Positions 89 to 35,205 of a stretch of 64,000 nucleotides of DNA are shown here, piece by piece. The DNA is taken from NCBI GenBank assembly GCA_002082305.1, contig LSNO01000017.1, forward strand, positions 813 to 64,812. The letters run 5' to 3'. The notes beneath the pieces were generated by a model. That model made no database searches and had not been told where the DNA came from. It saw only the letters and a list, made by a program, of their open reading frames with translations. Source of the stretch: SAR324 cluster bacterium SAR324-CTD7B (lineage in GTDB: Bacteria; SAR324; NAC60-12). Both the position numbers and the translations under genes were made by a program. Numbering within the stretch: the first letter of the stretch is position 1; each line of letters opens with the position of its first letter.

Positions 89-745
89 ATGACCTACAGT
101 ATAACATCAGACATTCCGGATAATTTACTTGAGTTGTATTTATCCGAACAGGAAATTGCAATAGACTCAGAATTCCATGGTCTTCGACTTTACCGAGACG
201 AAGTGTGCTTAATCCAGATATGCGATGACAAAAAGAATGTTAGTCTTGTAAAACCTGACACTAAAAAGGTGCCTCCCAATTTAAAGCAACTATTAACCGA
301 TCCTGGCGTGACCAAAATTTTTCATTTCGCCATTAGTGACGTAGCTTTCATTAAAACCTCACTGGATATTGAAGTGACACCATTTTGCTGTACTAAAGTA
401 ATGAGCAAATTAATCAGGACTTACACACAGGGGCATGGATTAAAAGATCTGTGTTTAGAATTGTTGGGACACGAAATCAATAAAGAGCAGCAACAGACTA
501 ACTGGGCGCAAAATAATCTCACTCAAAAACAGCTCGAATATGCGGCAAAGGATGTTTTAGACTTAATTCAGATCTATCATAAACTAAGTCAAATGATGGA
601 TAAACGTCCTTCTCTATCTACCGGCACAACCATACGTGAATTGAATAACAAGGCCCAATCCATGCTGCCGGGACTGGTCGAATTATTAATACATGGATAC
701 GGAGATAAAGATGGCGGATGGGGAAGCAGCTTGTTTTCTCATTGA
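89..745 (+). CDS. 3'-5' exonuclease, RNase D-like (DEDDy family)
   Basis: 218-aa ORF with ExoI 'IAIDSEF', ExoII 'FHFAISDVAF' and ExoIII 'YAAKDVLDL' motifs typical of RNase D / pol I-type 3'-5' exonuclease domains. It ends with a TGA stop at 743-745. Confidence 0.8.
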   Translation: MTYSITSDIPDNLLELYLSEQEIAIDSEFHGLRLYRDEVCLIQICDDKKNVSLVKPDTKKVPPNLKQLLTDPGVTKIFHFAISDVAFIKTSLDIEVTPFCCTKVMSKLIRTYTQGHGLKDLCLELLGHEINKEQQQTNWAQNNLTQKQLEYAAKDVLDLIQIYHKLSQMMDKRPSLSTGTTIRELNNKAQSMLPGLVELLIHGYGDKDGGWGSSLFSH

Positions 746-2947: not shown

Positions 2948-4720
2948 TCAAATCTGCTGTGATAGTTGCTGTGAAACTGACTTTAAGGCATGGAAAGCCT
3001 TTCTGGGATTAAGCCGTCTGTCCAATAATCCAATTCGTGGATAATAACCCCTGTCATTGTCAACAAATGTATCTAAGAATACGGTTGAATTTTGCATAGT
3101 TCTGCTGGTTTTATAAACATCAATTATAAATTTTTCCAACTTTTTTTCATCATCAAAACACTTTCCTTCATTGAGCCGCGGCATTTGCAGATTTATTAAT
3201 TTATGATCTTTGACCTGCCGGTCAATTTCTCTCAGAGTGGTCAGGTGATCATCCCATGGAGAAACCCTGAATGTCAGCCCAACCCTGTGTGAATTATCGT
3301 TTACTGTTGAAAGCAGTTTTTTAGCTTTAACTGTCTGCTCAACTGAAAATCCGTGACTTGCAAAATGCTGAAATATATTTTTATCTGCAACATCTTTTTT
3401 CAGTGGCACCACAGGAGATATAAATAGTTTACCTTTAAACACACTTTGTGCAATCCTGACGGATTCTGCAGCCCGTAAAATTGAATGTTCAGGAAATATA
3501 AGTTCCCAATTCTCAAGCAAAGCCCCATGAGCTGCTATTGTAGTCAATACATGCTCATCTGGAGAATCAAGGCTATAAACAGTAAATCCAAAGCCCAGCC
3601 TGACAAAATCACTTAGCCTTCTGCGGACATCTGCGTTTGCAAGATCTGCCAGGGGAACCCTTAACGAAGTTACACCAAGTTCTAAAAGTGCAATTAATAA
3701 TCCATCTCGATAAGCTTCCTTACGCTTAAATTCGTCAAGACCATCTACAGCCAGCTCAACCCTTCTACCCCAACCTTGACGTAAACTCACTCCAAGCATC
3801 CACACTTTGCAGTCGGTTAACAATAATAAGTCCTTGTCCGTCGTTTCCGGATGGATACTAATTTCGCCGTATGTTCTGATTGGTACTATTTCATGTCTGC
3901 CGGTAAAGACCTTAACAATGAAATATCCTAACTTAGCAGTATCATTTCTACCAAATTCTTCACCTGGTGCAACTACCTGCAACTCAGAATATTCCGGACG
4001 TACAAAGGAGGTTGAAGGTAAAATATAATATTTTGTTTTTTCGTGAACTCCTACAAAAACATTATGCACATGTCCTGAAAATACTGCCTCCACTGAATAT
4101 TGTTTAAACAGTTCAAGAAGCCATGTTCGGGCTGGCTCATCAATGTTGTCATAATGAGGGGCTTCGTTTGGTTCACAAATAAAAAGCGGATAATGCATAA
4201 ATACGAAAATTCTAAGTCCGCTTTCATTAGCAACTCTCAGCTCATTTTCCAACCATATCTGCTGCTCCTTCTCCCTCATCAAACCTGAATTTAGTACGGG
4301 CGTATCTATACAGGTAAACAAACAATTCTTACTAGTAAATGCTTGATACATCGGCCCCCAGTATTTTGTGAAAATCTGGTGGCTTTTTTCATCAACGACT
4401 GGTGCCGGCAGAGATGCGTTCGGTTTATCACCTATATCATGATTTCCCGGTAAAGCAAAAAATTTTGTTTCAAGCTCAGAAAAAATACCGGATGCAATTT
4501 TTACTGCAGATTCATGATTGCCTAAGGCCGGAATTGGATGTACCAAATCGCCTAGATGAATCACAAAATCCGGTTTTATTCTGTTAAGGCATTGTACTAC
4601 ATATTTTGCTCGATCGTTCGATAATCGGTTTGAGGGAAAACCACCCTCCTCTGCAGAATCCGGCAGACGGATATGGGTGTCTGCAATAACCGCGAATTGG
4701 AATAACAATTTATCCTGCAT
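2948..4720 (-). CDS. metallophosphoesterase with a large uncharacterised C-terminal domain
   Basis: 590 aa. The N-terminal calcineurin-like motifs are 'VIADTHI', 'HLGDLVH', 'GNHD' and 'SGHVHN'. The ~300-aa C-terminal region has no motif I can name. Confidence 0.75.
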   Translation of the reverse strand: MQDKLLFQFAVIADTHIRLPDSAEEGGFPSNRLSNDRAKYVVQCLNRIKPDFVIHLGDLVHPIPALGNHESAVKIASGIFSELETKFFALPGNHDIGDKPNASLPAPVVDEKSHQIFTKYWGPMYQAFTSKNCLFTCIDTPVLNSGLMREKEQQIWLENELRVANESGLRIFVFMHYPLFICEPNEAPHYDNIDEPARTWLLELFKQYSVEAVFSGHVHNVFVGVHEKTKYYILPSTSFVRPEYSELQVVAPGEEFGRNDTAKLGYFIVKVFTGRHEIVPIRTYGEISIHPETTDKDLLLLTDCKVWMLGVSLRQGWGRRVELAVDGLDEFKRKEAYRDGLLIALLELGVTSLRVPLADLANADVRRRLSDFVRLGFGFTVYSLDSPDEHVLTTIAAHGALLENWELIFPEHSILRAAESVRIAQSVFKGKLFISPVVPLKKDVADKNIFQHFASHGFSVEQTVKAKKLLSTVNDNSHRVGLTFRVSPWDDHLTTLREIDRQVKDHKLINLQMPRLNEGKCFDDEKKLEKFIIDVYKTSRTMQNSTVFLDTFVDNDRGYYPRIGLLDRRLNPRKAFHALKSVSQQLSQQI

Positions 4721-4777: not shown

Positions 4778-5356
4778 TTACTGTTCCCATGAAACAATAT
4801 CATGCTCCAAATCTACATCCAGAGCATCAGCTATTCTGTTGATATAATTGAAATAGCTAATTACCTGAACCGCATCATGAACTGCAGTTTGACTAAATCC
4901 TAAATCCAATAAATGTTTAATGTCAGCTTCGGACATTTCAGCAGGAGTTAAAGTCAACTTCTCAGCATATTCACAAAGTGCATAATCGGCAGATTTTAGT
5001 CCCGCATTCTTCCAATCTTGAGCTATTTGACGTACAAACTCATCTGTAGCAACAGGATCCTTAATCTCTTTTGCAACCTCAACACGGAGGTCGTTTGCAT
5101 GAGAACGAATTCAATATATACAATGATTTGCAGATGAAACAACTGTAGCCAGCATTTCTCTTTGAGAACGTGAGAGCGGAGATTCACCAAACATAATAGT
5201 TTGATAGAATTTCATTGAATCCTTCAAAACTGGTGGATTCTGGCTCATAATGCTGACGATGTTCCAAATCTTAGCTGCTCGTTTAATTGCTGCGTCATAT
5301 TGTCTTTTTAAAAGCCCTTTTGCTTCTGAATGCTTAATAATAGTTATCCAAGCCAT
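4778..5356 (-). CDS. AhpD/carboxymuconolactone decarboxylase-family peroxidase-related protein, predicted selenoprotein (in-frame TGA at 5111-5113 = Sec82)
   Basis: The track ORF 5111-5356 ends '...VVSSANHCIY' at a TGA. The same frame continues 110 codons ('IRSHANDL...YFNYINRIADALDV...') to TAA at 4778-4780. The motif N-x-C-x-Y-[C]-x-x-S-H has TGA at the second Cys position. A hairpin lies 17 nt downstream of the TGA. Confidence 0.8.
5074..5093 (-). promoter_or_regulatory. candidate bacterial SECIS stem-loop
   Basis: On the minus strand this reads CGACCUC-CGUGUU-GAGGUUG: a 7-bp stem (one G-U pair) with a 6-nt apical loop containing GU. It starts 17 nt 3' of the in-frame UGA. Identified by hand folding only. 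Confidence 0.5.
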
Positions 5357-6900: not shown

Positions 6901-8607
6901 CTACTCCGGATATAAAGGTTCCAACTGTGACTGTCCTTTGTTATTATTAAATTTTTTATCTAATAAAGAAACCTTGAGAAAATCATTAAATAAATTCTCC
7001 AATGAACTTTCTTTTGTTTGATTATTTCCGTAGAGTACAGAATTTAGATCATTTATTCCATTCTTTAATTCCGGCATTCTTTCCCCAATTTGTTCTAAAC
7101 CTTGCGGAGGATCATCAGTCCAAACTGCAGTACCCCATTTTAAAAGTGCCGTTTGCACAATTCCGGGATCTCCGGAACTAAAAGCTTTTTCTGCATTTCT
7201 AGTTGCTTCTCTAAGAGCGTTCTTCCGATCCTGTATAAATTTGTTTTTATTTTTAGTGACAGCAGCAGCTTTATTATTTTTATTTATAAACCACATCAAC
7301 ATTGTTGCGCACCAAAGAAATGCTAAACCGAAGGCCAATATCTTCCAAGGGAATGATTCTATTGCCGTTTCTTTTTCCTGTAGAACTTTTGCAGTTGCTG
7401 CCTGATTTGACTGTAATTCAGGAGTTTCCTCTTCAGGTATTTCCTGTAAATTTTCTGGTACAGGAAGTATATCAAATATTTTTGGAGATATGACTGCAGT
7501 CTGAAGCGTATCACTTTTAATGTCCCACCAACTGACAGAAACTCCCGGAAGTTCAATTTTTCCTGGATGACTTGGAATAAGAGCCCATTTTTCCAATCGC
7601 ATCCCTTTAAGTCCCTTTTCCGTTTTTTCTGTCTCAATTAAAGGTTGATCTGCATATCCCTTCAAAGTAACAGGATAATCAAATTTTAATTCCGGAATTT
7701 GATTCCCAGAAACACCATTTGCAAAAATCACAAGAGTTCTAGTCACCGGTTCTCCTACTCTAAATACCGGAGGATCCGGCTGCCACTTTTCTTCTATCAC
7801 AAGTTTGTCTGTCGGCAGCCACCAGTTCTTGAAACCTGACGGCAGCGGCTTAACTTCAACTGATTGCGTTGTACTTGTACTAAATATTCTTCGTCCCCGT
7901 TTTTGAAAAAGATTGCCAAAATTACCAAAATTATTTTGTGATGGACCTCTTTGAATTATTTCACCCTGATAACGAACCTGTGGAATAACAAGTGTCCCGC
8001 TTTTTTCCGGAATCACTGCATATAAAATTTCAGTAATCTTATGTTTTTTCCCATTTTTGACAGTCTGGTAGGATTTTTGACTTAGCTCCTCTACTAGTGC
8101 TTCCTTCAGTTCAAACGGTGTAATCGTTTCATTTTCCAGTTGTACTCCAGTTCGAGAAATACTTAATCGGACGAGAATCTGCTGCTGTGGATAAACTTTT
8201 TTGGGAACAACCTCCACTTCAAGACTAACATATTTCTGCTGCTGATTCTGTGAGTATGCAGTCACTTTTAATGCAATGGGAGTGCTTTGCTCATTTCCTA
8301 CCTGGAGGGCTGGTATCAGGTAATCTCCGGAAGATGGAGCAATCATAATATAGGTCCAGCTCAAAGTTCTTGTGATAGAAGTCCCAACGATGGAGGTTCG
8401 ATTTTGCACACTTCGATTCAAAATTTGCAAACCGGTAATTCCGCTTAAATCTGGTTCCTCGGCATCATCAACATTTTTTGCTTCTACATGTAACTGGAAC
8501 ATGTCTCCTACCACTACCGGATTTTTATTTACCCATGCAGTAACATCGCCCCAGGCTGGATTACCGGCCAATATCAAGATTCCCAAAATAAATAGTTTTA
8601 TCATCAT
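6901..8607 (-). CDS. batD: BatD-like oxygen-tolerance protein
   Basis: 568 aa with a signal peptide, repeated beta-rich modules, one C-proximal TM segment ('WKILAFGLAFLWCATMLMWFI') and a position abutting the batB/C stop, as in Bat operons. Confidence 0.75.
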   Translation of the reverse strand: MMIKLFILGILILAGNPAWGDVTAWVNKNPVVVGDMFQLHVEAKNVDDAEEPDLSGITGLQILNRSVQNRTSIVGTSITRTLSWTYIMIAPSSGDYLIPALQVGNEQSTPIALKVTAYSQNQQQKYVSLEVEVVPKKVYPQQQILVRLSISRTGVQLENETITPFELKEALVEELSQKSYQTVKNGKKHKITEILYAVIPEKSGTLVIPQVRYQGEIIQRGPSQNNFGNFGNLFQKRGRRIFSTSTTQSVEVKPLPSGFKNWWLPTDKLVIEEKWQPDPPVFRVGEPVTRTLVIFANGVSGNQIPELKFDYPVTLKGYADQPLIETEKTEKGLKGMRLEKWALIPSHPGKIELPGVSVSWWDIKSDTLQTAVISPKIFDILPVPENLQEIPEEETPELQSNQAATAKVLQEKETAIESFPWKILAFGLAFLWCATMLMWFINKNNKAAAVTKNKNKFIQDRKNALREATRNAEKAFSSGDPGIVQTALLKWGTAVWTDDPPQGLEQIGERMPELKNGINDLNSVLYGNNQTKESSLENLFNDFLKVSLLDKKFNNNKGQSQLEPLYPE

Positions 8608-10440
8608 TTACCAATATTGTTCATTTGTAAAATTTTGTTTTCCGCGGCGTTGAAATTCCCTTTCCATTTTGTTGCGTAACAAGCGCCCGGGATCATCAGG
8701 TATTTTTCTCAACCATTGTTCAAGGAATTGCTGTTTGGCAAGATCAACCGGAGTTGAATCCTGTTTCTTGTTTTTTGCGTTTTCTTTTTCGGCAGATCCA
8801 TCAATTTTTTTCTGCCCTTCTTCATTATTTGGAGATTCAGTTTTTTCTTCATCAAATTTTTCATTATTTTTCTCTGCAGTTGATTCCTTTTCAGCATTAT
8901 TTTTTACGGCCTCTGCAGTCTGCTGATCACTGGTACCCGCATTGTCACCAGAAGAATCCTGGGCGGACTGTGCATTTTGTTTTTCCTGAGTTTGGCTAGA
9001 GCCATTCTGTTGATCCTGTTTATTTTTTTGATTTGCACCCTGTTGTCCCTCCTGCTGTTGTTTTTTCTTTTGTTGTTCTTTCAGTAGTTTTTCAATCAAA
9101 TCATGATTGTACTGAGCATCTACGTCTTGCGCATTATCTGCTAAAACCCGCTCAAAAGCTTCCAGTGATTCCTGTAACCGTCCTGCAAAGGCCAATGCAT
9201 TTCCACTGTTGAAATTGGCCCGTGAATGATTCTGTTGAGAAAAATGCTCAATTGCTTTTTCATAGTCGCCAGATCGATATGCCGCTGCCCCTTTCCATTC
9301 CGAGCTTTCAAAAAGTTCAGCTGCTTGTTTCGTTTCACCTTGCTGAAACAATTTAGCTGCCTGCTGGTCCGGTCGTAACCATAAATCATCCCATCCGAAT
9401 GCGAGTGCTGAAGAAGGCCTTGCTGTGACTCCAAGTAATACTGCAAATCCAATTGAAAACAATAGACCCCTACGAAACAGCAACGCTGCCATGGGCAAGA
9501 CAAGTAATAAGAGCCATGGTCCTTCTTCATTCCACTTATCAGAAGTTCTCTGCTGTTTGTCTTCAACATAATCATCTGCAGCAGTTTCTGCTGCAATGAT
9601 TTGCTCCACATCCCGATCATCCGGACTCAATTTTGTGAAGGCACCATGAGTTTGAGCGGCTAATTTTTGTAAAGGTTTTAAATAAAGTTTTGGTATTACA
9701 ATTCCCCCTTTTTTGTCTTTAAGAAACCCTCCTCCAGACAAGGGGATCGGTGAGCCGGATTCAGTTCCAACTGCAAGAATTGACAGGCGATTCAAACCAA
9801 CCGCATTTTCTGCTGCTGGAATATCCTGTACTTCAATACCGTCTGTAACCCAGATGATATGTCCAGTACCGCCATTCCTCCGGCTTAAAAGATCTGCAGC
9901 AAGTTCAATTGCAAGATCTGAACGACTTCCGGGAAGAGGCATAATATTCGGATGAAGCCCCGTAAGAAGAGACGCAATGGTGACAGGATCATGGGTCAAT
10001 GGGCTGATAACGAATGCATCTCCTGCATATACGATAAGTGCAGTTTCACCTTCAACAAAATGTCCTAGCAGGTCTTTCAATTTGAAACGTGCTCGCTCAA
10101 ACCGTGTTGGTTTTATGTCTGTTGCCAGCATGGAATAAGATAAATCCAAAACCAGTACTCTGGCCAGTGATTTTTGCAGCAGTGGCTGTAGATTCTTTTG
10201 CCAGACAGGTCCGGACAAAGCCAGCAAAAGAATAGTACCGACTAAACAGATGATCCATGGCAGCAGACTCCGTTTTTGCTTTGCCGGAGTTGTTGCAAGA
10301 AACGACAGCAAATGCGGTTCTACCACATCTTCCCAGTTTCCTTTGCTCCACCATCTTCCAAGGAAACGAAAAACCATCCACCAGAGAACTGGTATTGCTA
10401 TTAGCCACAGAGGGCGTAAAAATTGAAATTCTGATAACAA
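8608..10440 (-). CDS. batB: fused BatB/BatC-like protein (TM + von Willebrand A domain + TPR + K/Q/E-rich low-complexity tail)
   Basis: 610 aa. The N-terminus 'FQFLRPLWLIAIPVLWW' and VWA MIDAS 'VLDLSYSM' resemble BatB. TPR-like 'AAYRSGDYEKAIEHF...GNALAFAGRLQESLEAFERVL' and C-terminal 'WLRKIPDDPGRLLRNK' resemble BatC. TTG start. Confidence 0.78.
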   Translation of the reverse strand: MLSEFQFLRPLWLIAIPVLWWMVFRFLGRWWSKGNWEDVVEPHLLSFLATTPAKQKRSLLPWIICLVGTILLLALSGPVWQKNLQPLLQKSLARVLVLDLSYSMLATDIKPTRFERARFKLKDLLGHFVEGETALIVYAGDAFVISPLTHDPVTIASLLTGLHPNIMPLPGSRSDLAIELAADLLSRRNGGTGHIIWVTDGIEVQDIPAAENAVGLNRLSILAVGTESGSPIPLSGGGFLKDKKGGIVIPKLYLKPLQKLAAQTHGAFTKLSPDDRDVEQIIAAETAADDYVEDKQQRTSDKWNEEGPWLLLLVLPMAALLFRRGLLFSIGFAVLLGVTARPSSALAFGWDDLWLRPDQQAAKLFQQGETKQAAELFESSEWKGAAAYRSGDYEKAIEHFSQQNHSRANFNSGNALAFAGRLQESLEAFERVLADNAQDVDAQYNHDLIEKLLKEQQKKKQQQEGQQGANQKNKQDQQNGSSQTQEKQNAQSAQDSSGDNAGTSDQQTAEAVKNNAEKESTAEKNNEKFDEEKTESPNNEEGQKKIDGSAEKENAKNKKQDSTPVDLAKQQFLEQWLRKIPDDPGRLLRNKMEREFQRRGKQNFTNEQYW

Positions 10441-10529
10441 AATAATTAACGAATATTAGGCTGGTGCTTTAATGAAAATTCACCTGAGCCGGGGTTGTTC
10501 ATGATTTATACTTGCTTTGAATGAATAAC

Positions 10530-10683
10530 TAGACAATCACGAGTTTTAGCGTGTCATCCCAAACGTATGTGAGGTATCTTATAAGAAATCAGTACTTTAT
10601 CAGATCTCTCCCTTCAGTCGAGATGACATACCGGAGTCAATACTATTAGTATCTTACAAAATTTCATGACTCCCGAGATGAAC
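10530..10683 (+). repeat. MITE-like intergenic repeat, copy B
   Basis: Roughly three-quarters identical by eye over ~150 bp to 52794-52942. Internal inverted arms are GTCATCCCAAACGTATGTGAGGTATCT (10553-10579) and AGATCTCTCCCTTCAGTCGAGATGAC (10602-10627). It is flanked by AATAAC at 10524-10529 and 10684-10689. Confidence 0.8.
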
Positions 10684-10813
10684 AATAACAGATGCACTTA
10701 TTATTCAGCTCTTTGTTTTCAGTCAGAAAATTCTTTATAAATTATCTGATCAATGACGGCTAAATATTTCTTTCTTTTTAGATCAATTACGAAACTTAAC
10801 ATAATAAATATGA

Positions 10814-11830
10814 TTAGTTTCTAATCAATAAAACGGCTGACCATATTCCAACTATCAGTACTGCAAAACCCAGCGGCCACATAAACAAGGCTTGACGGGG
10901 ACGGAAAACCTCTTTTTCTATTTCCAACGGTTCAATTTTATCAATCATTGCATAAATTTTTTCCAGTTCTTCTGTACTTCTCGCCCGAAAATATGTACCA
11001 CCAGTCTGGCTTGCTAAAGATTTCAGCATTGCTTCATCAAGTTCTGCAGATGGATTAATTTTTTGCTTGCCGAAAAAAGCCCTTATCCATGCCTCATCTG
11101 CACCAATACCAATGGTGTGGATCCGTAGCCCCGTTTCTTTAGCTAAACGCCCTGCATCTTCAGGAGTAACCTCACCGGCGGTATTTTGACCATCTGTGAG
11201 CAACACCAATACTTTTTCTTTATCCGGAAGATCTTTCATACGTTTTACGGCCAGTCCGATTGCATTACCAATTGCAGTTCTCTGTCCGGCAAGACCTAAT
11301 TCAGACTCTTCAAGCATTTGCCGCAATGTTTTCCGGTCGAAAGTCAGTGGAGTTTGCAGATAAGCCTGATCTCCAAACAGAATCAGCCCCAGCCGGTCGC
11401 CTTTTCTCCGCTCAATAAAAGGCCTCAAAACTGATTTTACAACAGCCAGCCGCGTCACGGATTCACCGTGAAGTTCCAGATCCGTTTCTTTCATACTTCC
11501 GGAAAGATCAACCGCAAGCATCACACTTCGGCCGGAAACAGGTAATTCTACTGGATCCCCAACCCATTGCGGCCGCAGTGCTGCCAGAACAATCAAACTC
11601 CAGACCAATCCGGCTAACAGCAAGACTTTTGAGTTTTTTCCAGCTGAAATTCCGGATTTAGGCAAAACTGTAATTCTATGAAAAAAAGGTACACGAAGAG
11701 ACTGAACTGACCTATCAACTGGTGGAAGAACACGAAACAATAAGGGCAGTGGCCAGAACCACGCCACCCAAAGCCAAATAAATTCAAACACACCATTCTC
11801 AAATAAAAACATTTTCCGTGCTTTGTTCAA
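10814..11830 (-). CDS. batA: BatA-like VWA domain protein
   Basis: 338 aa with N-terminal TM helices, VWA MIDAS 'AVDLSGSM' and 'LLTDGQNTAG', and a C-terminal TM helix. The TTG start at 11830 overlaps the upstream stop (TTGA). An alternative ATG lies at 11812. Confidence 0.85.
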   Translation of the reverse strand: MNKARKMFLFENGVFEFIWLWVAWFWPLPLLFRVLPPVDRSVQSLRVPFFHRITVLPKSGISAGKNSKVLLLAGLVWSLIVLAALRPQWVGDPVELPVSGRSVMLAVDLSGSMKETDLELHGESVTRLAVVKSVLRPFIERRKGDRLGLILFGDQAYLQTPLTFDRKTLRQMLEESELGLAGQRTAIGNAIGLAVKRMKDLPDKEKVLVLLTDGQNTAGEVTPEDAGRLAKETGLRIHTIGIGADEAWIRAFFGKQKINPSAELDEAMLKSLASQTGGTYFRARSTEELEKIYAMIDKIEPLEIEKEVFRPRQALFMWPLGFAVLIVGIWSAVLLIRN

Positions 11831-12309
11831 TGCTGCTGACTACAATCCATAATCCATTTTTTTACCATTGGAAACAAAACATCTATTTCAATTTCCGGAT
11901 TTTGCTGATAAAGTTCCTTTCCAAATACATGCCCTGCTCCTTGAGTAAATTCAGTGGTTTTTCCTGTTCTATCAAGAAACTCCAACCATTCGGATCCATG
12001 CAGTGAAGCTACATTTTCATCTGCACAAAAAGTCAATGCAACCCGACGCAGTAATTGCGATAAATCCCTGAGTATTTCCAATGATTCTTCGGTATTATTT
12101 TGTTGATTTTGCAGATTTTTTAACAATCGCAGAGCTTCAGTTTTGGGTTTTCGCCGTTCAAAACGTCGACTGATCCACATTCCGCAAAACACAAAAATCA
12201 AAAGCAGTACTACTGCCACAATCCACCAGCCTGGAGCCGGAGGCCAAATTGCAACAGCTGGTGGTAAGTGAATGTCTTTTAAATTTATTAGAGGATTTTC
12301 TTCCGGCAT
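11827..12309 (-). CDS. DUF4381-like membrane protein (Bat/MoxR operon component)
   Basis: 160 aa. 'LKDIHLPPAVAIWPPAPGWWIVAVVLLLI' is the characteristic N-terminal motif plus TM helix. It lies between DUF58 and batA. Confidence 0.75.
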   Translation of the reverse strand: MPEENPLINLKDIHLPPAVAIWPPAPGWWIVAVVLLLIFVFCGMWISRRFERRKPKTEALRLLKNLQNQQNNTEESLEILRDLSQLLRRVALTFCADENVASLHGSEWLEFLDRTGKTTEFTQGAGHVFGKELYQQNPEIEIDVLFPMVKKWIMDCSQQH

Positions 12310-12342
12310 TTGAAATTGTTTGTAATCAAAATGATTGATTCA

Positions 12343-13260
12343 TTAAATCTGTGAAACATTGTCCACTGTACTCAGCATTTTCAAGCTTAGCCTGCAGAGT
12401 TGTAATTCGTGCTTTAAACTTTTTAGCTGATCTTCATAAGTGGAAGCATAGAGTTGACGTGTTTTTGAATTTTCGGAGTTAACCCAGGCAACAGCTTCAC
12501 CGTCACTCATTGCATAACGTCCGGAAGATGGTGCTTCTTTTTCCAGAGGATCTGAAATTAAAAAGGCAGCCAGCTGATTTTGTTTGGAAAGTTGAAACAA
12601 GTGCTTCCGGCATTCTGCATTAAATCCAGAAAAATCACTGAATATGTAAATCAAACTTCCCGGATGTACTACTTGTCGCACACGCCTCAATGCCTGGGCA
12701 AAAAGAGAATTGCTACCAAAACTCCATTCATTATTATTCATCCTGTCTGCAATTCGATTATGCTCAGTCATAATATTTGAAAGCAAACGTAAAAAATGTC
12801 GACGGTCACTTCTTGGTTTGAATTCCCGATGCATTTCTTCTGAATATATAACACCTCCAACTCGATCTCCCCGTAGAAGTGCCCTCCAACCCGTCAAAGC
12901 GGCAATACGGGCTGCTTGAACTGATTTTAATCTTTGGCGAGTTCCAAAAAACATCCGGCGGGACAGATCCAAAACCAGCATCACTGGACGCTCACGTTCT
13001 TCCCTGAACAACTTAGTGTGTGTCGTGCCCGTTCGTGCCGTCACCCTCCAGTCAATATGACGCACATCATCTCCGTACTGATAAGAGCGGGCTTCAGCAA
13101 ACTCCATCCCTCTTCCCTTGAGTTTAGTCAAATATGGACCTCCAAGTGATCCAACATTTTCTGCAGTCAACAACAGTCCTTTCTTATGGGCAATCCTAAC
13201 CAATTCCGGCAACTCCATTTTTCCAAGAAATATTCCATTTTTTTCAGCAGCATCTTTCAT
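12343..13260 (-). CDS. DUF58 domain protein (MoxR-associated, VWA-like)
   Basis: 'GMEFAEARSYQYGDDVRHIDWRVTARTG' is the DUF58 signature. The track ORF extends to 13332, but that overlaps the upstream gene by 68 nt. The ATG at 13260 sits 4 nt after the sulfatase stop. Confidence 0.85.
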   Translation of the reverse strand: MKDAAEKNGIFLGKMELPELVRIAHKKGLLLTAENVGSLGGPYLTKLKGRGMEFAEARSYQYGDDVRHIDWRVTARTGTTHTKLFREERERPVMLVLDLSRRMFFGTRQRLKSVQAARIAALTGWRALLRGDRVGGVIYSEEMHREFKPRSDRRHFLRLLSNIMTEHNRIADRMNNNEWSFGSNSLFAQALRRVRQVVHPGSLIYIFSDFSGFNAECRKHLFQLSKQNQLAAFLISDPLEKEAPSSGRYAMSDGEAVAWVNSENSKTRQLYASTYEDQLKSLKHELQLCRLSLKMLSTVDNVSQI

Positions 13261-13264
13261 TTTT

Positions 13265-15169
13265 TTATTTTTCCGGCCATACTCGGTTTTCCTGCAAAAC
13301 CCAGCGAATAGTTTCAATCCAGGATGATCCAATTTCCTTCAAGTGCAGTCCTTTTTGATTGTCCTGATCTCCAAAAAAATGATCTCGCTGGTCATTTTCA
13401 CGATAATAACGTGATTTTTCTTCAATGACCGCCCAATATGCTCCAGGACGATTTGTAAATGCACGTTGAGGCACATCAGTCAGCAAATCAACTGAATTCA
13501 ACAATGAGCGCCCTACCCAGGGAACTATGTATTTTTTACGTAAAATATCCAAAATTGTAGGTGCCAAATCCACTTGACTGGCATGTTGAGTGATAATAAG
13601 TCCCTCAGATTTTTTTCCTAGGGCTGTGGATTTACCTGATAAAATAAGTAACGGAACTTGAGAATGCAGATTAACAAATTCTTCATAATTGTTGGTATGC
13701 TGTTCCGCATTTTGATAACTGGAAGTATCTGCAGTCACAAAAATAATGGTATTTTTAAACCACGGTTTTTTGGAAATCCTTTTAAGAAAGCCCCCCAACA
13801 TGGCATCAGTATAGTGTAAAGATTCTCGGTAGCGGTCTGTCACTGAATCTCCCGCTTGAAGCCGATAATTATCCGGGACTTCAAAAGGATGGTGATTGGT
13901 TGTAGTTAAAGCTGAAGAGAAAAATGGTTCCGGCTCACTGTCTAAAACAGTTTCCCATTTCCGGAAGAGGTCTTCATCAGAAATCCCCCAGCCAAGTGTC
14001 ACGGCCCCGTTTGGGAAATCAAATTCATCTACAATTTTATCAAAGCCGACTTTTGGCAAAAATGTGGACTGTCCGTCAAAGTTTGCATCAGAACCGTAAA
14101 CCCATGAGGTGTAATAACCTGAATTTTTTAGGTATTCCGGAAGACACATGAAACTGTTCCTGGTGTAGCGCTTCATAACAGCAGCACCGTAATTTGGAAA
14201 CAAAGAACAGTAGGTGGCCACCTGTCCATGTCTGGTTTGAAAACCGTTTGCGAAAAAGTTTTTATATAATATTCCGTGCTTGGACCAGCGATCAAACTCC
14301 GGAGTAAGCCCCAACTTGCTGCCGTAAACACCTACTTCCGCAGCCCTAAATGACTCCAGGAACAATATTAAAATATTAGGTCTGTCTGCAGTTGTACACA
14401 GAATTTTAGTAAGCTCAGAATGATTCTGTCCAGTACATCCTGTTGCCTCACGTATTCGCACGAGCGGATAATTATCCCATATTTTTCCTGAAGGTTTTTT
14501 ACCTTGAATTAATGTCTCCACTATTTTTAGAGATTTTTCAGGACGAAGAATTTTTTTATCAGGTTCACGATCTTTGGAATAATAAAAATATTGCAATGCT
14601 GCAGATGTAAGCGGATTTTCCATGTTTTTTGAAACATAGGAATTACTGTAACTTGCAGCAGGCCCCCCAATTAAAATTATAAACAGGAGCGTTGATGCCC
14701 TGCACTTAAAATCTTCTTTCCAACTGTTCCGTTTTTTCCCAAAACGCCAAAGCATAAACACCAGCATCACCGAAGGGAAAACGAATAAAATCCAAAAAGT
14801 TATGTCATTTACTGCATGTGCTGCGGATGACAAAAATGCACCGCTATCATTCAAATATTCAATGGTAGAAAAAGGAAGGTGGGTACCAAAAATCAAAACG
14901 TAATGGTAATCTGTGAACAGGAAAGCAAATAATCCAAGACCAAGAATGCTGAAGAAAATTTTCCTAAATAAGATTGGAAAAGGAGAAATCACAGCTAATG
15001 TGCTGAAAATAGCTCCGTTCATCACGTCATAACCCACACCAAGTGCATAGGCTTGGAACAACCGCTCACTCCAATCAGAATTCAACTGAAGCAAAAAGGA
15101 ATGTTGAACTATGCCTGCCAGAGAAACAACAAAAAACAGAACCACAGCCGTTGGGTCAAGATATTTCAT
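13265..15169 (-). CDS. LTA synthase / sulfatase-family membrane protein (alkaline-phosphatase superfamily)
   Basis: 634 aa with five or so N-terminal TM helices and an extracytoplasmic domain carrying 'NILILFLESFRAAE', 'ANGFQTRHGQ' (putative Thr nucleophile) and 'TTTNHHPF', as in LtaS/MdoB-type phosphoglycerol or phosphoethanolamine transferases. Confidence 0.8.
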   Translation of the reverse strand: MKYLDPTAVVLFFVVSLAGIVQHSFLLQLNSDWSERLFQAYALGVGYDVMNGAIFSTLAVISPFPILFRKIFFSILGLGLFAFLFTDYHYVLIFGTHLPFSTIEYLNDSGAFLSSAAHAVNDITFWILFVFPSVMLVFMLWRFGKKRNSWKEDFKCRASTLLFIILIGGPAASYSNSYVSKNMENPLTSAALQYFYYSKDREPDKKILRPEKSLKIVETLIQGKKPSGKIWDNYPLVRIREATGCTGQNHSELTKILCTTADRPNILILFLESFRAAEVGVYGSKLGLTPEFDRWSKHGILYKNFFANGFQTRHGQVATYCSLFPNYGAAVMKRYTRNSFMCLPEYLKNSGYYTSWVYGSDANFDGQSTFLPKVGFDKIVDEFDFPNGAVTLGWGISDEDLFRKWETVLDSEPEPFFSSALTTTNHHPFEVPDNYRLQAGDSVTDRYRESLHYTDAMLGGFLKRISKKPWFKNTIIFVTADTSSYQNAEQHTNNYEEFVNLHSQVPLLILSGKSTALGKKSEGLIITQHASQVDLAPTILDILRKKYIVPWVGRSLLNSVDLLTDVPQRAFTNRPGAYWAVIEEKSRYYRENDQRDHFFGDQDNQKGLHLKEIGSSWIETIRWVLQENRVWPEK

Positions 15170-15416
15170 TGTTCACTGTGCTGTCTGCTTATTTGTGAAT
15201 AAATCATATTCTGACTGAAAGTCAAATAATTGTTTTGAATTGCCAATTACAAATATAATAAAATGCAATCTGTTTTGATATTTTTTGATTATTTAATTCT
15301 GGTAATTGAATGCAATGTAGTGAAGCATTAGTTTGGAGAATTTAAAACCTGCCTGTTATTGAAAATAATCTGCTGAATTTACCATATTCATGCAAGATTA
15401 AGCACAGAAGCAATTT

Positions 15417-16427
15417 TTAAGGAACGGCCACCTGAGCAAGAATTTTTGCAATCACGTCATCGGTGGTAATACCATCAGATTCAGCTTCATAACTTTCAAT
15501 AATTCTGTGACGCAGCACGTCACCGCTTAAATCCTGCAAATCTTCCGGAGTGACAAAATCACGTTCATGCAGCCAGGCACGGGCACGGGCGCACCGGTCA
15601 AGTGACAGCGACCCTCTAGGACTGGCACCCCAGGTGATCAAACGTGCCAACTCATCGCTATATTTTTCCGGAATCCTTGTGGCTGCAATAATCTCAACCA
15701 AATAACGTTCTATTTCAGGCGCCATGTATATATTCAGTGCTTCATTTCTTGCTTCAAAAATATGTACTGCAGAAATTTTTCGTCCTGCAGATTTTGTTCC
15801 TGAATCAACCGCAGATTTCGGACTTTTATCCGATGAAATTTGAATTTCACTCAAAGCTTCTTTTCGGACAAGGCGCATTATTTTTAATTCATTTTCTATT
15901 GAGGGATAGTCTATAAATACGTGAAGTAAAAAACGGTCAAGCTGCGCTTCAGGAAGAGGATACGTCCCTTCCTGTTCAATAGGATTTTGTGTAGCCATCA
16001 CCAGGAACAAATCCGGAAGAGGATACGTTTGTCCACCAACCGTTACCTGCCTTTCGCCCATAGCTTCCAGAAGAGCCGATTGGACCTTTGCGGGAGCACG
16101 ATTAATTTCATCTGCCAAGACTAAATTATGAAAAACCGGTCCTGACTGAAAGTGAAAACTACCCTCTTGGGGACGATATATGTCCGTCCCTGTTACATCG
16201 GCAGGTAATAAATCCGGAGTGAACTGTATACGTTGGAATTCTCCCTCAATCTTTTCACCAAGAGCTTTAATTGCACGGGTTTTTGCCAGACCGGGGGCAC
16301 CTTCAACTAAGAGATGTCCGTCTGCTAACAGTACTATCAATAAGCGTTCTATCAGGCGTTCCTGTCCTAAAATGATTTGATTTAAATCGGCTTGTAACTG
16401 ATGAAATATACGTAATGAATTTGACAT
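15417..16427 (-). CDS. MoxR-family AAA+ ATPase
   Basis: 336 aa with 'LLVEGAPGLAKT' (Walker A), 'LVLADEINRAPAKVQSALLEAM' (Walker B / sensor) and 'ATQNPIEQEGTYPLPEAQLDRF', the textbook MoxR signature. Confidence 0.93.
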   Translation of the reverse strand: MSNSLRIFHQLQADLNQIILGQERLIERLLIVLLADGHLLVEGAPGLAKTRAIKALGEKIEGEFQRIQFTPDLLPADVTGTDIYRPQEGSFHFQSGPVFHNLVLADEINRAPAKVQSALLEAMGERQVTVGGQTYPLPDLFLVMATQNPIEQEGTYPLPEAQLDRFLLHVFIDYPSIENELKIMRLVRKEALSEIQISSDKSPKSAVDSGTKSAGRKISAVHIFEARNEALNIYMAPEIERYLVEIIAATRIPEKYSDELARLITWGASPRGSLSLDRCARARAWLHERDFVTPEDLQDLSGDVLRHRIIESYEAESDGITTDDVIAKILAQVAVP

Positions 16428-30809: not shown

Positions 30810-32084
30810 CTAAATTGTCTTTTGAACATTACTCAACCAGGAGTCAAGCAGCGGACGAAGTTTTGTGATTGTAGGGGCTTCTCTAAAAAAGAATCCATAG
30901 CGCGAAAAATACGTGGATGCCTCTACTTGCTCGGCCAGTTGAATATTTTTGAGTAAACTGCGATTGATGCCTATCAGCAAAGGTGCCCCTTTTTGTGAAT
31001 CAAGTTGTTCCAGTCTACTCTGGAGGGGAGCCACATGCCATTTATGAAAAAGCTCCATTGACACTTTTTTCCCAGAATGGTGCTTCAACAGAAAATCCGG
31101 GAAACAAAGCGATTCACCGGTCAACGGAATAAAATCTGCTGAAGATGTCAGTTCCCAGTCAGGTATTTGTTTAGCAAGTTGCTGACTGAACAACTGTATT
31201 TCATCAGGAATATAGGCTAAAAACTGACGGTAGTGGGAGCGAATTCCACAAGATTGATCAAGGTGCAGGCTGTGAACATGGTTTTTACGGATTCTAACTT
31301 CTGCATCCAGTTCCCATTCAGGCTGCTGCAAAATTGCAGGAAAAAAATTGGCGAGGTTTAAACCATATTTTTGTGTGTTTACAAACAAACTCAGCGGACC
31401 ATCAATTTCCAGCATCAATGTTTTTTTCTTTCTTTGATCGTGGCTGATCTTTGCAAGTAATTTATTGAAACGCAAATATTTAAGCAGTTGCCGCAACCCG
31501 GCTGCTTTGCTTTCAGGCAGGCTAACATTTAGGCCTTCGCAGCGCAGAAGCAAGCCTTGGAGCTGAGCGCAATTGTAACGATGCAGTAAGCCTGCAGCAG
31601 TCATTTTGCGGAAACGCAGCACCTGCTGAAAAGGCGGCAAATCTCCATACAGTTGCCGTCCCAACTGCTCAATAGATATTCCTACTGATTTGGCTATTTC
31701 AATTTGATAATGGCCTAAATCAGCTTTATCCCCCATCTCAACACCCGGAAAACGAAACGCTTTTTTAGCACTGAAAAATGCAGCAGAGTTGAAAAATACT
31801 TTTTCCCTGAGATCAGTTAATTCCGTTTTTGCTTCCGTGTCAAATTCGGTACGGTCAAGCAGGAGTTTTTCCAAACCTCGGCCCACAATTGCGTTTCCCG
31901 GAAAACCGTCCAAAACCTGCTTTGTCTCTTCCTCAAGTTTTTCACGGACTTGACCTACGCTTCCGGAAAAAACCGCGAGTAATTCTTCTGCAATTTCTAA
32001 AAGTTTTGTTGCTTCCGGATTAATTAATTTGGGCAGAATTTTGCCCCGATTCGTCCGGAAGCACAACAGGTCCTTCGTAAGCAC
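30810..32084 (-). CDS. DUF790 / Bax1-like nuclease
   Basis: The track ORF starts at 32231, overlapping 212 nt with the helicase. Family members start 'MLTxDLL...', matching 'VLTKDLLCFRTNRGKILP' from the GTG at 32084. It is positioned immediately after an XPB-like helicase, as in archaeal XPB-Bax1 pairs. Confidence 0.72.
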   Translation of the reverse strand: MLTKDLLCFRTNRGKILPKLINPEATKLLEIAEELLAVFSGSVGQVREKLEEETKQVLDGFPGNAIVGRGLEKLLLDRTEFDTEAKTELTDLREKVFFNSAAFFSAKKAFRFPGVEMGDKADLGHYQIEIAKSVGISIEQLGRQLYGDLPPFQQVLRFRKMTAAGLLHRYNCAQLQGLLLRCEGLNVSLPESKAAGLRQLLKYLRFNKLLAKISHDQRKKKTLMLEIDGPLSLFVNTQKYGLNLANFFPAILQQPEWELDAEVRIRKNHVHSLHLDQSCGIRSHYRQFLAYIPDEIQLFSQQLAKQIPDWELTSSADFIPLTGESLCFPDFLLKHHSGKKVSMELFHKWHVAPLQSRLEQLDSQKGAPLLIGINRSLLKNIQLAEQVEASTYFSRYGFFFREAPTITKLRPLLDSWLSNVQKTI

Positions 32085-33435
32085 GGTGTTTTCTACGTCG
32101 CTGGTTGGTAAAATATTCTCCGGTATCCTTGGAAACAAGTTCATAAAGTATGGCCTGTTTTCCGGGACGTGCTCGCAGAATTCGTCCCAGACGCTGAACA
32201 TGCTCCCGAATACTGCCGCTTCCGGAAACAATCATGCCGACATTCGCATCCGGAACATCAACTCCTTCATTCAGAACTTTTGAAGTGACTAGAATCGGAT
32301 ATTCGCCTGATCTGAATGATTTTAGAAAAGCCTCCCGTTCCGGTAGTTTTGTATGATGTGTAAGCACCGGTAACAGGAAATTATTCCCAATGCGGTAAGC
32401 CATTTCGTTGTCTTGCGTAAAAACCAGCATACGGTCACCTTTATGCTGCTGAATCAGTTCCCACAAACGATCTACTTTTGCTCCGGATGCCTGACTGAGC
32501 TTCTTTTGCAGCAAATAAGCCTTGAATGCTTTCCGGCCTTCAGGACTTTCACTGGTTCTGCGTAAAAAAATAGCCCAACCGCTTGGATGCTGAAAGCTGA
32601 TACGTGCTTTACGTAAAAAATCAGTATAGCATTCACGTGAAATCTCGTATTGCTCACGCTCCTCCGGACGCATATCTACCTCGATTGTTTCCACCACGTA
32701 TGGTGCCAGGGTACGACCGCTTAACTCGTCAATATGAACTTCGTAACAAAGAGGCCCGCAAAGTTCGTAAAGGACTTGCTCTTTTCCGTCAGCACGTTCC
32801 GGAGTTGCAGTCAAACCCAGGCGGAATGGAGCAATTGAACCAAGTGCAGTAAATTGATTTTGCTCACCAGGCAAATGGTGACATTCATCAAAAACCAGGA
32901 GTCCAAACAAATTACCCTGATGTGTTACATGGATCAAAGCAGAGTCGTAAGTTGCTACAGTAATTGTCTGAATATCATTTATTCCACCACCAAGTAAACC
33001 AATTGGAGTTTCAAAATATTCGCTTAAAACCTCTTTCCATTGCCGCATCAGATCAATCGTTGGAACATGAATCAAAGTTGGTCGTCCGGTTTCCGCAATC
33101 AGCATTACTGCCAGAATAGTTTTACCTGCACCGGTTGGTAAAGTTACTACTCCGTGCTTTTCTGACAACCATGCTTCAGCAGCTTCACTTTGAAAAGAAC
33201 GAGGTCTAATGTTCTTTTTCAGGACAAAAGTTTCTGCAGAAAATTTTCGGGCATGGTCCTGGAAGCTAATGTTCTTCTCACACAGTGCTGTGACAAGTTT
33301 ACGGTAGTTGGCTGCAGGAGTACGGTAACTGTTTGTCCGCTCATCCCAGGAAATTCCGTCAAGATGCTGCATATATCTACCCGCCATGCCGTGAAGCTGG
33401 ATGGTTCCTTTATCGAAGTGCAGGCTGAGAGTCAT
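32020..33435 (-). CDS. XPB/Ssl2-like superfamily-2 DNA helicase
   Basis: 471 aa with N-terminal 'LHFDKGTIQLHG' (damage-recognition-domain-like), motif I 'LPTGAGKT', motif II 'VFDECHH', 'GLTATPERADGKE' (RED-like) and motif VI 'HVQRLGRILR'. Confidence 0.85.
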   Translation of the reverse strand: MTLSLHFDKGTIQLHGMAGRYMQHLDGISWDERTNSYRTPAANYRKLVTALCEKNISFQDHARKFSAETFVLKKNIRPRSFQSEAAEAWLSEKHGVVTLPTGAGKTILAVMLIAETGRPTLIHVPTIDLMRQWKEVLSEYFETPIGLLGGGINDIQTITVATYDSALIHVTHQGNLFGLLVFDECHHLPGEQNQFTALGSIAPFRLGLTATPERADGKEQVLYELCGPLCYEVHIDELSGRTLAPYVVETIEVDMRPEEREQYEISRECYTDFLRKARISFQHPSGWAIFLRRTSESPEGRKAFKAYLLQKKLSQASGAKVDRLWELIQQHKGDRMLVFTQDNEMAYRIGNNFLLPVLTHHTKLPEREAFLKSFRSGEYPILVTSKVLNEGVDVPDANVGMIVSGSGSIREHVQRLGRILRARPGKQAILYELVSKDTGEYFTNQRRRKHRAYEGPVVLPDESGQNSAQIN

Positions 33436-33529: not shown

Positions 33530-34045
33530 CTAAATTTCATCTAGAGCGAGTTCTTCCAAACGTATACGGTGGCGGAGAATAATAAGATTGGCCAGAGAAA
33601 AAACAACGGCCGTTCCATATGCTGCATGAAGCAAAGGTACACTGGCTATTTCCAATATCACTCCCAAATAATTCGGGTGCCGTACAAATCGATATATTCC
33701 GTGCTTAATCAACGGTGCATCCGGAACAACGTAAATACGGGTGGACCAACGCTCTGCGAGTGTCCGGATGGCAAAATAGCGCAGGGTTTGTCCAGCAGCT
33801 AATCCTGAAAATGCCGCTATCACCAACCATAAAGGCGGTGCTGTCCTAAAGTACCAGACCTCTGCCAGCATTGCTGCAAACCACGAAACATGTAAGGCGA
33901 CCAAAACTCGATAATGTTCAGGGAAACGCTCGAATCCGCCTTTTTCCCTCATCCTGATTTCGTTGCGCCGGCTTCGTCTCAATTCCCACAAGCGCTGTGC
34001 AGCCAGCAATGCTACCAACAACATGAATCCCCAAAGGCTCACCAT
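33530..34045 (-). CDS. isoprenylcysteine carboxyl methyltransferase (ICMT)-family membrane methyltransferase
   Basis: 171 aa, polytopic, with 'GIYRFVRHPNYLGVILE', the ICMT/PEMT-type motif. Its start overlaps the PKS stop by 7 nt. Confidence 0.82.
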   Translation of the reverse strand: MVSLWGFMLLVALLAAQRLWELRRSRRNEIRMREKGGFERFPEHYRVLVALHVSWFAAMLAEVWYFRTAPPLWLVIAAFSGLAAGQTLRYFAIRTLAERWSTRIYVVPDAPLIKHGIYRFVRHPNYLGVILEIASVPLLHAAYGTAVVFSLANLIILRHRIRLEELALDEI

Positions 34046-35205
34046 TGCAGCAAAACCAATTCACCGGAAAATGCCGGTCCCAATGAAATCATCATTCCAA
34101 AATTTCCGGTATCGGATTTACCATAGATTTTCGGAACCGGACCATTTAAACATTCGTCAAGTATAACCAGAACTGAAGTTGAAGAAATATTACCTACTTC
34201 ACGGAGGTGTTTCCGTGTTTTATCAAGTGATTTTGGAGGCAACTCCAAGCATGATTCAATTGTATCAATCACCTTTGGTCCTCCTGGATGAGTGAGCCAA
34301 AGAGCAATATCAGGAATGGATAGTCCGTGTTCTGCAAGGAAACTGTCCACATGCGGCCGTAACTGCTTCGCATAGCCGGGAACCCCTTGCCCCAGCATAA
34401 TTTTCAATCCACGATCTGTTACATCCCAACCCATGACTTCTTCTGAGTCAGGAAAGAAAATTGATTTACTGCTCAAAACCCTGGGCTTATGAAACTCATG
34501 ATCTTTTTCACTTTCATCTTTTGAACCTTTGGAAACTTTGGAACCATGAAACTCATTAGCTTTGCTATTTCGTTTTTCATTACTTTTCACCAACGGATGT
34601 TGGTCGCCAACCAGCAAAACTGCTGCCGCTCCGTCTCCAAAAAGTCCACTCGAAATGATGTTTGCAATCGAGAGGTCTTCGGCCTGTAAAGTTAATGAAC
34701 AAAGCTCAATAGTAAGCAATATAGCCGCTTCCTCCGGATGTCCTTTCAAATAATCGCCAACGCGTGCAACCCCTGCAGTACCGGCAAGACAGCCCAAACC
34801 AAACAATGGAACCCTCTTTAAATCCTGAGCAAAGGCAATTCTGTTCATCAAGCGTGCTTCCAATGAAGGCACAGTCACTCCTGTACTGGTTACACTCATA
34901 AGCATCTGAATTTCTTGCGGATGCAAGTTAGTTTTTTCCAGTAAATCATTAATAACCCGCTCGCCCAACTCTAAAGCCACTTCCAGCCATGCACGGTTGC
35001 AGTCTGCAAACCCGTCCAGCTTGTAATATTCAGACATGGGCAAAGCCAAATAGCGGCCTTCAACAGTTACTGCTTTCTGCAGACGGTCAAAGATCGCTAC
35101 ATCCAAACCTTTTTTAATCCACACTGCTCTCAACGCAAAACTTATTTCTTGCTGCGAATGATAATGCGTCGGGAAAGCTGTGGCTGTGTTGATAATATGA
35201 GGCAT
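34039..35205 (-). CDS. type III polyketide synthase (chalcone/stilbene synthase family)
   Basis: 388 aa with the catalytic triad context 'GLGCLAGTAG' (Cys), 'WLTHPGGPKVID' (His) and 'VGNISSTSVLVILDE' (Asn). Confidence 0.9.
   Translation of the reverse strand: MPHIINTATAFPTHYHSQQEISFALRAVWIKKGLDVAIFDRLQKAVTVEGRYLALPMSEYYKLDGFADCNRAWLEVALELGERVINDLLEKTNLHPQEIQMLMSVTSTGVTVPSLEARLMNRIAFAQDLKRVPLFGLGCLAGTAGVARVGDYLKGHPEEAAILLTIELCSLTLQAEDLSIANIISSGLFGDGAAAVLLVGDQHPLVKSNEKRNSKANEFHGSKVSKGSKDESEKDHEFHKPRVLSSKSIFFPDSEEVMGWDVTDRGLKIMLGQGVPGYAKQLRPHVDSFLAEHGLSIPDIALWLTHPGGPKVIDTIESCLELPPKSLDKTRKHLREVGNISSTSVLVILDECLNGPVPKIYGKSDTGNFGMMISLGPAFSGELVLLQW

Follow-up and report, generated by a model that had tools for sequence, protein, structure and literature searches.

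The AhpD-like proteins with a CxxU motif, in which U stands for selenocysteine (Sec), were described as a new selenoprotein family (COG2128) from 27 Sargasso Sea sequences (Zhang, Fomenko and Gladyshev 2005; PMC1088965), were counted in 2008 as 'AhpD-like 1', the fourth most abundant selenoprotein family in the Global Ocean Sampling (GOS) data with 299 sequences (PMC2398784), and are entered in a 2026 review as 'AhpD-like protein, TIGR01926, CxxU' (PMC13188914). Here we analyze a gene of this type on the minus strand of a 64,000-nucleotide (nt) stretch of contig LSNO01000017.1 from SAR324 cluster bacterium SAR324-CTD7B (positions 813 to 64,812; hereafter the window), in which a TGA codon falls within the predicted redox motif. 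With a probability of about 0.92, this gene encodes a 192-residue AhpD-like (TIGR01926 'peroxidase-related') oxidoreductase of SAR324 in which Sec is inserted at the UGA of codon 82.

The gene is well supported as a further, mis-annotated member of a selenoprotein family that ranks among the most abundant known from the sea, and it shows every testable defining feature of the AhpD-like selenoproteins (TIGR01926, CxxU). Like them, it scores above the TIGR01926 cutoff, has a CxxU motif with the predicted Sec in second place and Cys homologs at the same column, carries behind the UGA a hairpin of the selenocysteine insertion sequence (SECIS) type with a G in its small loop, and comes from a marine habitat. 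Nothing substantive sets it apart from the family; the literature that we searched does not list SAR324 among the Sec users.

Mycobacterium tuberculosis AhpD, the founding member, reduces AhpC with lipoamide-linked electrons. The window protein belongs to the same superfamily, sharing the Pfam CMD domain and a TIGR00778 match above cutoff, but the M. tuberculosis structure (1gu9/1knc) is distant from it: 1gu9 gave a weak match, with template modeling (TM) scores of 0.42/0.47 and E = 0.05, and there was no sequence match at E < 0.01. We rejected a canonical AhpC-reducing AhpD of the M. tuberculosis type on account of this weak match and of the absence of any AhpC or peroxiredoxin domain among the window genes. 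The closest characterized homolog is instead DR1765, an AhpD-like protein of Deinococcus radiodurans (6k40), which together with 3c1l, 2oyo, 2pfx and 2prr makes up the closest solved structures. The active-site stretch N-x-C-x-Y-C/U-x-x-x-H is common to the window protein and the DR1765 group; unlike the window gene, the DR1765 group comprises Cys forms (CxxC), with neither recoding nor hairpin (P0120 and other Cys forms). According to a passage of a paper citing Zhao et al. 2020 (PMC8945050), deletion of DR1765 makes cells more sensitive to H2O2, and complementation needs the cysteines of the CxxC motif.

One AhpD-type domain spans an in-frame TGA

From its ATG, the minus-strand frame runs for 81 codons (...VVSSANHCIY) to the TGA and then for 110 sense codons to a TAA (Table 1). 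Codon 82, in the context N-H-C-I-Y-[TGA]-I-R-S-H, is the sole TGA in the frame, and the part encoded beyond it (residues 83-192) includes the peptide IADALDVDLEHDIVSWEQ. The list of open reading frames (ORFs) made from the window holds the 81-residue (aa) ORF at 5111..5356 and, beneath it, short fragments only. An initial annotation, made from the sequence letters, had translated this open frame by hand and described the gene as missed by ORF calling. Re-translation of the frame gave an identical product and exactly the same coordinates, and the omission extends to the public records, which carry the 81-aa stub.

For profile searches, the joined product was written with C in place of U at position 82. 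Against TIGR01926 ('peroxidase-related enzyme') it scores 138.1 bits (cutoff 81.8), with residues 3-182 aligned to positions 2-174 of the 178-position profile across the TGA, and it also exceeds the cutoffs of the AhpD core domain TIGR00778 (32.1 bits, cutoff 27.8) and of Pfam CMD (PF02627; 40.1 bits, cutoff 23). Taken alone, the N-terminal half stays slightly under the Pfam CMD threshold and the C-terminal half matches no family. The gene lies outside two related families, the NF041238 AhpD_rel_CFYUT (seleno)protein (score 66.8, cutoff 175) and the NF053654 YciW-related (seleno)protein (score 19.1, cutoff 310).

The fold gives the same picture. A profile search of the PDB with close homologs matched 6k40 (130 bits), 3c1l, 2oyo and 2pfx full-length. 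An AlphaFold model was made from a database protein (P0001) that is 98% identical to the product and has W at position 82; it shows one compact, single-domain AhpD fold of nine helices, with a predicted local distance difference test (pLDDT) score of 95 and a predicted TM (pTM) score of 0.90, and places the TGA position at the junction between helix 4 (63-77) and helix 5 (80-94). Foldseek aligned the model with 6k40 at TM scores of 0.83/0.87 and 31% identity, and matched other AhpD/CMD structures as well. The Bmp8-like debrominase structures 6ohi/6ohj also appeared in the fold search and were set aside as a candidate function, given their 15% identity and the much closer AhpD-like relatives. 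Profile match and fold both span the TGA, in line with the earlier proposal that the two halves form one CMD/AhpD 'peroxidase-related enzyme'. Within the catalytic constellation, alignments A2 and A4 show no variation at E67, C79 and H86, and either U or C at column 82; the His86 codon is CAY in 81/81 sequences.

TGA and Cys codons occupy column 82 of the homologs

More than 588 related loci came out of a scan of species-representative genomes, and the best 80 (50-63% identity) were taken; the SAR324 genome itself was not among the loci listed. Column 82 is TGA in 80/80 of these best-ranked loci, a count that describes the nearest relatives and not the whole family. The 80 loci span at least six phyla and include members of Chloroflexota, Latescibacterota, Planctomycetota, Gemmatimonadota, Marinimicrobia and Acidimicrobiia; they share ancestry and had been sorted by their similarity to a Sec-form query, and binomial p-values calculated from them are inflated. 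Five more distant Cys-form loci (L087-L091) have TGC at this column, and the PDB homologs have C. The TGA thus lies on the second redox Cys of a CxxC motif, as the initial annotation had placed it, and the alignment that it proposed as a check returns TGA or TGC at the U82 column. Relatives in the protein databases are of three kinds, namely full-length proteins with W82, full-length proteins with C82 (CxYC), and fragments; many of the fragments are ~110 aa long and begin just past column 82, and there are N-terminal ones that end in ...HC-x-Y.

Both the TGA and the TAA are retained in 6/6 independent SAR324 assemblies. Nothing specific favors a sequencing or assembly error that conceals a TGC or TGT. 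Six assemblies made independently from different samples agree on the TGA, and the 81-aa stub, seen on 476 contigs, belongs to a cluster of 583 members; the probability of such an error is negligible.

Downstream of the TGA, a gap-free block of 64 codons shows a ratio of nonsynonymous to synonymous differences (pN/pS) of 0.34-0.38, with pS saturated, against 0.29-0.43 for the upstream block, and none of the loci has an in-frame stop in the downstream block. Judged from these ratios, the part after the TGA is under purifying selection, like the part before it. These data bear directly on whether the TGA is a genuine stop, either as a nonsense mutation in a pseudogene or as the end of a real 81-aa protein followed by non-coding DNA. 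Public gene callers do give an 81-aa product, which bears the NCBI name 'hypothetical protein', but this product would hold only four of the nine helices of a single domain, under half of it, and the TGA is conserved across phyla in the 80 nearest loci and in all six strains, while the 110 codons that follow are stop-free, under purifying selection and covered by the profile match up to residue 182. We consider a genuine stop most improbable. Doubts that the initial annotation itself had raised, namely that homologs might end at the TGA or that resequencing might reveal TGC or TGT, are removed by the same results. An arrangement of two genes with re-initiation was also rejected: the only in-frame downstream start is a TTG at 4957, and selection has kept codons 83-133, which lie before it, conserved.

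TGA is an ordinary stop codon in the window

The window has a GC content of 41%, and its 50 long stop-to-stop ORFs end 20 times in TGA, 22 times in TAA and 8 times in TAG; ORF 89..745, for example, has the TGA at 743-745 as its stop. In-frame TGA codons are absent from the interior of the largest genes (1176, 887, 616 and 569 codons), and the TGA at codon 82 is the only mid-gene TGA within a real coding frame in the whole window. The window uses the standard genetic code, and the view of the initial annotation that TGA is an ordinary stop here and the code not reassigned holds. When the window was scanned for other selenoprotein candidates (a TGA outside confident genes with the frame open on both sides), none with a redox motif was found.

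TGA could in principle be a sense codon, read as Trp (code 4) or Gly (code 25), and a series of database proteins (P0001-P0028) does show W at column 82. These proteins come from contigs of about 1 kb, on which a gene caller can choose code 4, whereas long contigs of identical sequence give the 81-aa stub, and the 80 loci come from ordinary code-11 phyla. With 20 of the 50 long ORFs ending in TGA and the long genes free of it, a sense-codon reading is scarcely credible.

A SECIS-type hairpin under selection follows the UGA

The bacterial SECIS has been described as an intra-ORF hairpin close behind the UGA whose small loop contains a guanosine (PMC1088965), and the geometry of the hairpin behind codon 82 agrees with this description. 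In folds of the 60 nt after the UGA, the window and most of the 80 loci give the hairpin with an identical register; it stands 17 nt past the UGA in every Sec form, and the family consensus is UGA-N17-(Y)GAYCUC-CGKGNN-GAGRUY(R). The lower stems carry the window hairpin down to just past the UGA; they are not conserved among the homologs. The E. coli fdhF SECIS resembles this element in being an intra-coding hairpin immediately 3′ of the UGA with one or more loop guanosines and presumed SelB binding; it differs in its unrelated sequence, the window loop having 6 nt (CGKGNN). The apical loop here occupies nt 28-33 (numbered from the U of UGA), ~6 nt further along than in fdhF (about nt 22-25).

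Pairing in the core stem is conserved, with compensating changes at some pairs. In the gap-free alignment of 80 distinct sequences, the seven stem pairs are standard in 97.0% of cells, and CG to UA double changes occur at three pairs, in 10, 5 and 5 sequences. None of 500 shuffles (0/500) matches the observed pairing, the double-change count or the covariation score, and when the 3′ arm is slid by 1-3 columns the pairing falls to 20-45%.

The stem also encodes a conserved peptide, D-L-R-x-E-V, and synonymous sites were therefore tested separately. The codon for Leu at +8 after the TGA is CTC in 75/76 sequences (28% in the same-gene background), that for Arg at +9 is CGT or CGG in 81/81 (background 40%), with CGC, the commonest Arg codon, never there, that for Glu at +11 is GAG in 76/81 (background 50%), and that for Val at +12 is GTY in 74/74 (background 57%). 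The five cases of GAA at Glu +11 occur together with UUC (Phe) at codon +8, preserving the base pair. The p-values for these synonymous choices are overstated by the kinship of the sequences; the effect across phyla and GC contents is unmistakable, and the hairpin is under selection at the RNA level.

The hairpin is absent from the Cys-form loci, which form 2-5 of the seven stem pairs and have residues such as KLRLEL, DLHAEA and ALNHFW in place of the peptide. The motif D-L-R-[AV]-E-V behind the active site (D-L-R-V-E-V in the window, 5075-5092, codons 89-94) is found in Sec forms only. At D-L-R-x-E-V the SECIS stem seems to dictate the protein sequence, in what appears to be a case of dual coding.

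A covariance model of the UGA and hairpin was derived from the 80 loci alone, without the window sequence. Run on both strands of the 64 kb, it gave one significant match, at 5066-5113 of the minus strand (53 bits, E about 1e-16), with the next best at 6.9 bits; against the Cys-form loci it gave nothing significant. The Rfam models yielded no match in the window at gathering thresholds, and a permissive scan of 5000-5160 returned only a chance CRISPR-DR match (E = 3).

Probable Sec decoding in SAR324

SAR324 is among the most abundant bacterial lineages of the deep ocean. A 2016 survey classed its single-cell genomes SCGC AAA001-C10 and AAA240-J09 as 'orphan SelD' (PMC5029168, Table 1), a term for genomes in which SelD is present and the other components of the selenium trait and selenoprotein genes are not found; it is the only publication pairing SAR324 with selenocysteine or selenoproteins that our literature search found. 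This classification counts against recoding to Sec, and so do several of our own results. None of selA, selB and selD is present among the 47 window ORFs scanned with Pfam, which cover 64 kb only, and no AhpC or peroxiredoxin gene lies near the predicted selenoprotein gene in the same scan. No tRNA-Sec was found; ARAGORN detected no tRNA gene at all in the 64 kb. Folded as a single sequence, the 86 nt surrounding the UGA give a plausible hairpin of unexceptional energy (z = -0.74); the case for this putative element rests on comparison between sequences. The kinship and ranking of the 80 loci, described above, belong on the same side.

The SAR324 genomes of the survey are incomplete. SAR406 single-cell genomes have also been published as 'orphan SelD' (PMC5029168, Table 1), and a TGA-containing AhpD-like gene is present in both lineages, in SAR324 (the window) and in Marinimicrobia/SAR406 (loci L043 and L063). 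Since both 'orphan SelD' lineages carry such a gene, the orphan status suggests genome incompleteness. The simplest reading would be that SAR324 is a Sec user, with the Sec machinery that the initial annotation had taken the recoding to imply, and that the 'orphan' label is an incompleteness artifact.

Two alternatives take the published label at face value. In the first, the UGA would be read through as Cys or Trp by a near-cognate or specialized tRNA, the hairpin would promote read-through, and SAR324 would have only an orphan SelD. The classification of AAA001-C10 and AAA240-J09 and the failure to find Sec machinery in the 64-kb window agree with this. Still, the classification comes from incomplete single-cell genomes, the combination of UGA and hairpin is common to many phyla in a family established as a selenoprotein (PMC13188914), and the hairpin bears the published SECIS hallmarks of a position just past the UGA and a small G-containing loop. 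Moreover, a plain TGC would insert Cys without the cost of recoding, as it does in the Cys forms. We regard such read-through as very unlikely. In the second, SAR324 would lack SelA, SelB and tRNA-Sec and would decode the UGA and hairpin non-canonically, with another tRNA or factor or with a residue other than Sec. This we hold to be very unlikely indeed; a milder version, in which the gene simply exposes SAR324 as an overlooked Sec user, is far more likely.

A possible catalytic role for residue 82

Sec insertion itself, its dependence on SelB, the chemistry and the substrate are what we infer from these observations. Following the canonical bacterial pathway, SelB carrying Sec-tRNA(Sec) would bind the hairpin 17 nt downstream of a ribosome standing at the UGA and would deliver Sec in competition with release factor 2, after which translation would run to the TAA at 4778. 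The resulting U82 would sit at the start of helix 5 in the stretch C79-I-Y-U82-I-R-S-H86, with the invariant E67 upstream.

The spacing Glu-11-Cys-x-x-Sec-x-x-x-His is presumably that of the M. tuberculosis AhpD active site (E118/C130/C133/H137). In the M. tuberculosis enzyme the second Cys is the attacking nucleophile, and the predicted Sec would therefore take the nucleophile's place, where selenoenzymes usually have it. If U82 acts like its counterpart in AhpD-type enzymes, its selenolate may attack a peroxide or an oxidized partner protein; C79 would then resolve the intermediate to a selenenyl-sulfide, which a reductant would recycle. The protein is not close to M. tuberculosis AhpD, and because no peroxiredoxin is encoded nearby, its partner and reductant need not match those of that enzyme.

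Annotation status and significance

All public records show either the stub with a small fragment or a product in which the TGA is translated as Trp. The stub on the 476 contigs is filed at NCBI as a 'hypothetical protein' (e.g. RTZ82745.1 and MBL4738219.1); like ClpP and ClpX of the window, it is entered in NCBI and UniRef under the SAR324 cluster (Ca. Lambdaproteobacteria). On long contigs, gene callers yield the 81-aa piece and a second piece of 52-59 aa. At least 15 'full-length' database proteins have Trp at the Sec position and stem from contigs of ~1 kb on which TGA was read in the Mycoplasma manner, and hundreds more entries are fragments of ~110 aa (C-terminal) or ~81 aa (N-terminal). 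These Trp-containing and fragmentary records are a systematic annotation artifact for TIGR01926 selenoproteins. The gene belongs to one abundant, cosmopolitan SAR324 population; its neighbor occurs in 380 blocks of the assembly collection.

The corrected gene gives SAR324 a selenoenzyme, implies that a major lineage of the dark ocean depends on selenium, and argues that the SAR324 'orphan SelD' label stems from incomplete genomes. The SECIS consensus, derived from a gap-free, multi-phylum alignment, could serve to correct the annotation of hundreds of truncated TIGR01926 genes. The practical value lies in annotation and in SAR324 physiology; a selenoprotein specialist would find the gene unsurprising.

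Neighboring genes and other features of the window

Table 1 Coordinates of the predicted selenoprotein gene, its active-site codons, the SECIS-type hairpin and the downstream gene; positions are those of the window.
Feature	Position	Strand	Description
Complete AhpD-like gene, predicted selenoprotein	4778..5356	minus	192 codons plus TAA stop (4778-4780); ATG at 5354-5356
In-frame UGA, predicted Sec codon	5111..5113	minus	U82 of the C79-x-x-U82 motif; TGA column in homologs
Cys79 codon TGT	5120..5122	minus	First CxxU position, predicted resolving cysteine; column invariant in alignments A2 and A4
His86 codon CAT	5099..5101	minus	AhpD-type active-site histidine, U82 + 4 residues; invariant
Glu67 codon GAA	5156..5158	minus	In the invariant Q-R-E-M motif, 12 residues before C79; predicted proton-relay glutamate; invariant in A2 and A4
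Core SECIS-type hairpin	5074..5093	minus	nt 21-40 from the U of UGA; stem CGACCUC/GAGGUUG, 7 bp, one G-U pair
Apical loop CGUGUU	5081-5086	minus	6 nt; G29 invariant, G31 near-invariant (>=90%)
Extended lower stems (tentative)	5057..5110	minus	AUUC/GGAU, UCUC/GAGA, UGCA/UGCA; from the minimum free energy fold of the window sequence only
Metallophosphoesterase gene	2948..4720	minus	590 aa, 57 nt past the TAA; Pfam Metallophos

A promoter and terminator scan found no convincing terminator between the predicted selenoprotein gene and the metallophosphoesterase gene, and the two are possibly co-transcribed; a functional link between them is speculative. In three of six SAR324 contigs (L081, L083 and L086), ~542 nt covering most of the Metallophos domain (window about 4000-4541) are deleted or replaced; as 542 cannot be divided by 3, what remains is an ORF of just 344 aa. 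In another contig (L082), the metallophosphoesterase is split into 405 and 154 aa. At the level of strains, the gene that directly follows the predicted selenoprotein gene seems to be decaying. The locus of a Cys-form homolog (L087, protein P0030) also has a metallophosphoesterase neighbor, divergent, and on its opposite flank a rhodanese gene; the pairing of AhpD-like and metallophosphoesterase genes may be recurrent or coincidental.

On the upstream side, an MscS gene and the selenoprotein gene are directly preceded by a long operon of the Bat/MoxR aerotolerance type (6901-16427, minus strand), whose genes encode a MoxR AAA ATPase, DUF58 and DUF4381 proteins, two VWA proteins, a VWA-TPR protein, BatD and a sulfatase-domain protein.

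Elsewhere on the minus strand, a 180-aa ORF at 37450-37992 covers no more than the N-terminal half of FAD_binding_3 (profile positions 2-171 of 349) and is followed in another frame by a 172-aa ORF without a Pfam match (36873-37391); together (36873-37992) they may represent a frameshifted or split FAD-dependent monooxygenase. The region 30810-33435, also on the minus strand, encodes an XPB-type helicase (32020-33435) and then a DUF790/Bax1-type protein (30810-32231), and the 212-nt overlap between them probably results from a TTG start of the DUF790/Bax1 gene called too far upstream. A type III polyketide synthase gene adjoins that of an ICMT-family methyltransferase at 33530-35205 (minus strand), and the plus strand at 47013-50519 encodes a fused B12-binding/MeaB GTPase/methylmalonyl-CoA-mutase protein of 1168 aa with an IcmF-like architecture.

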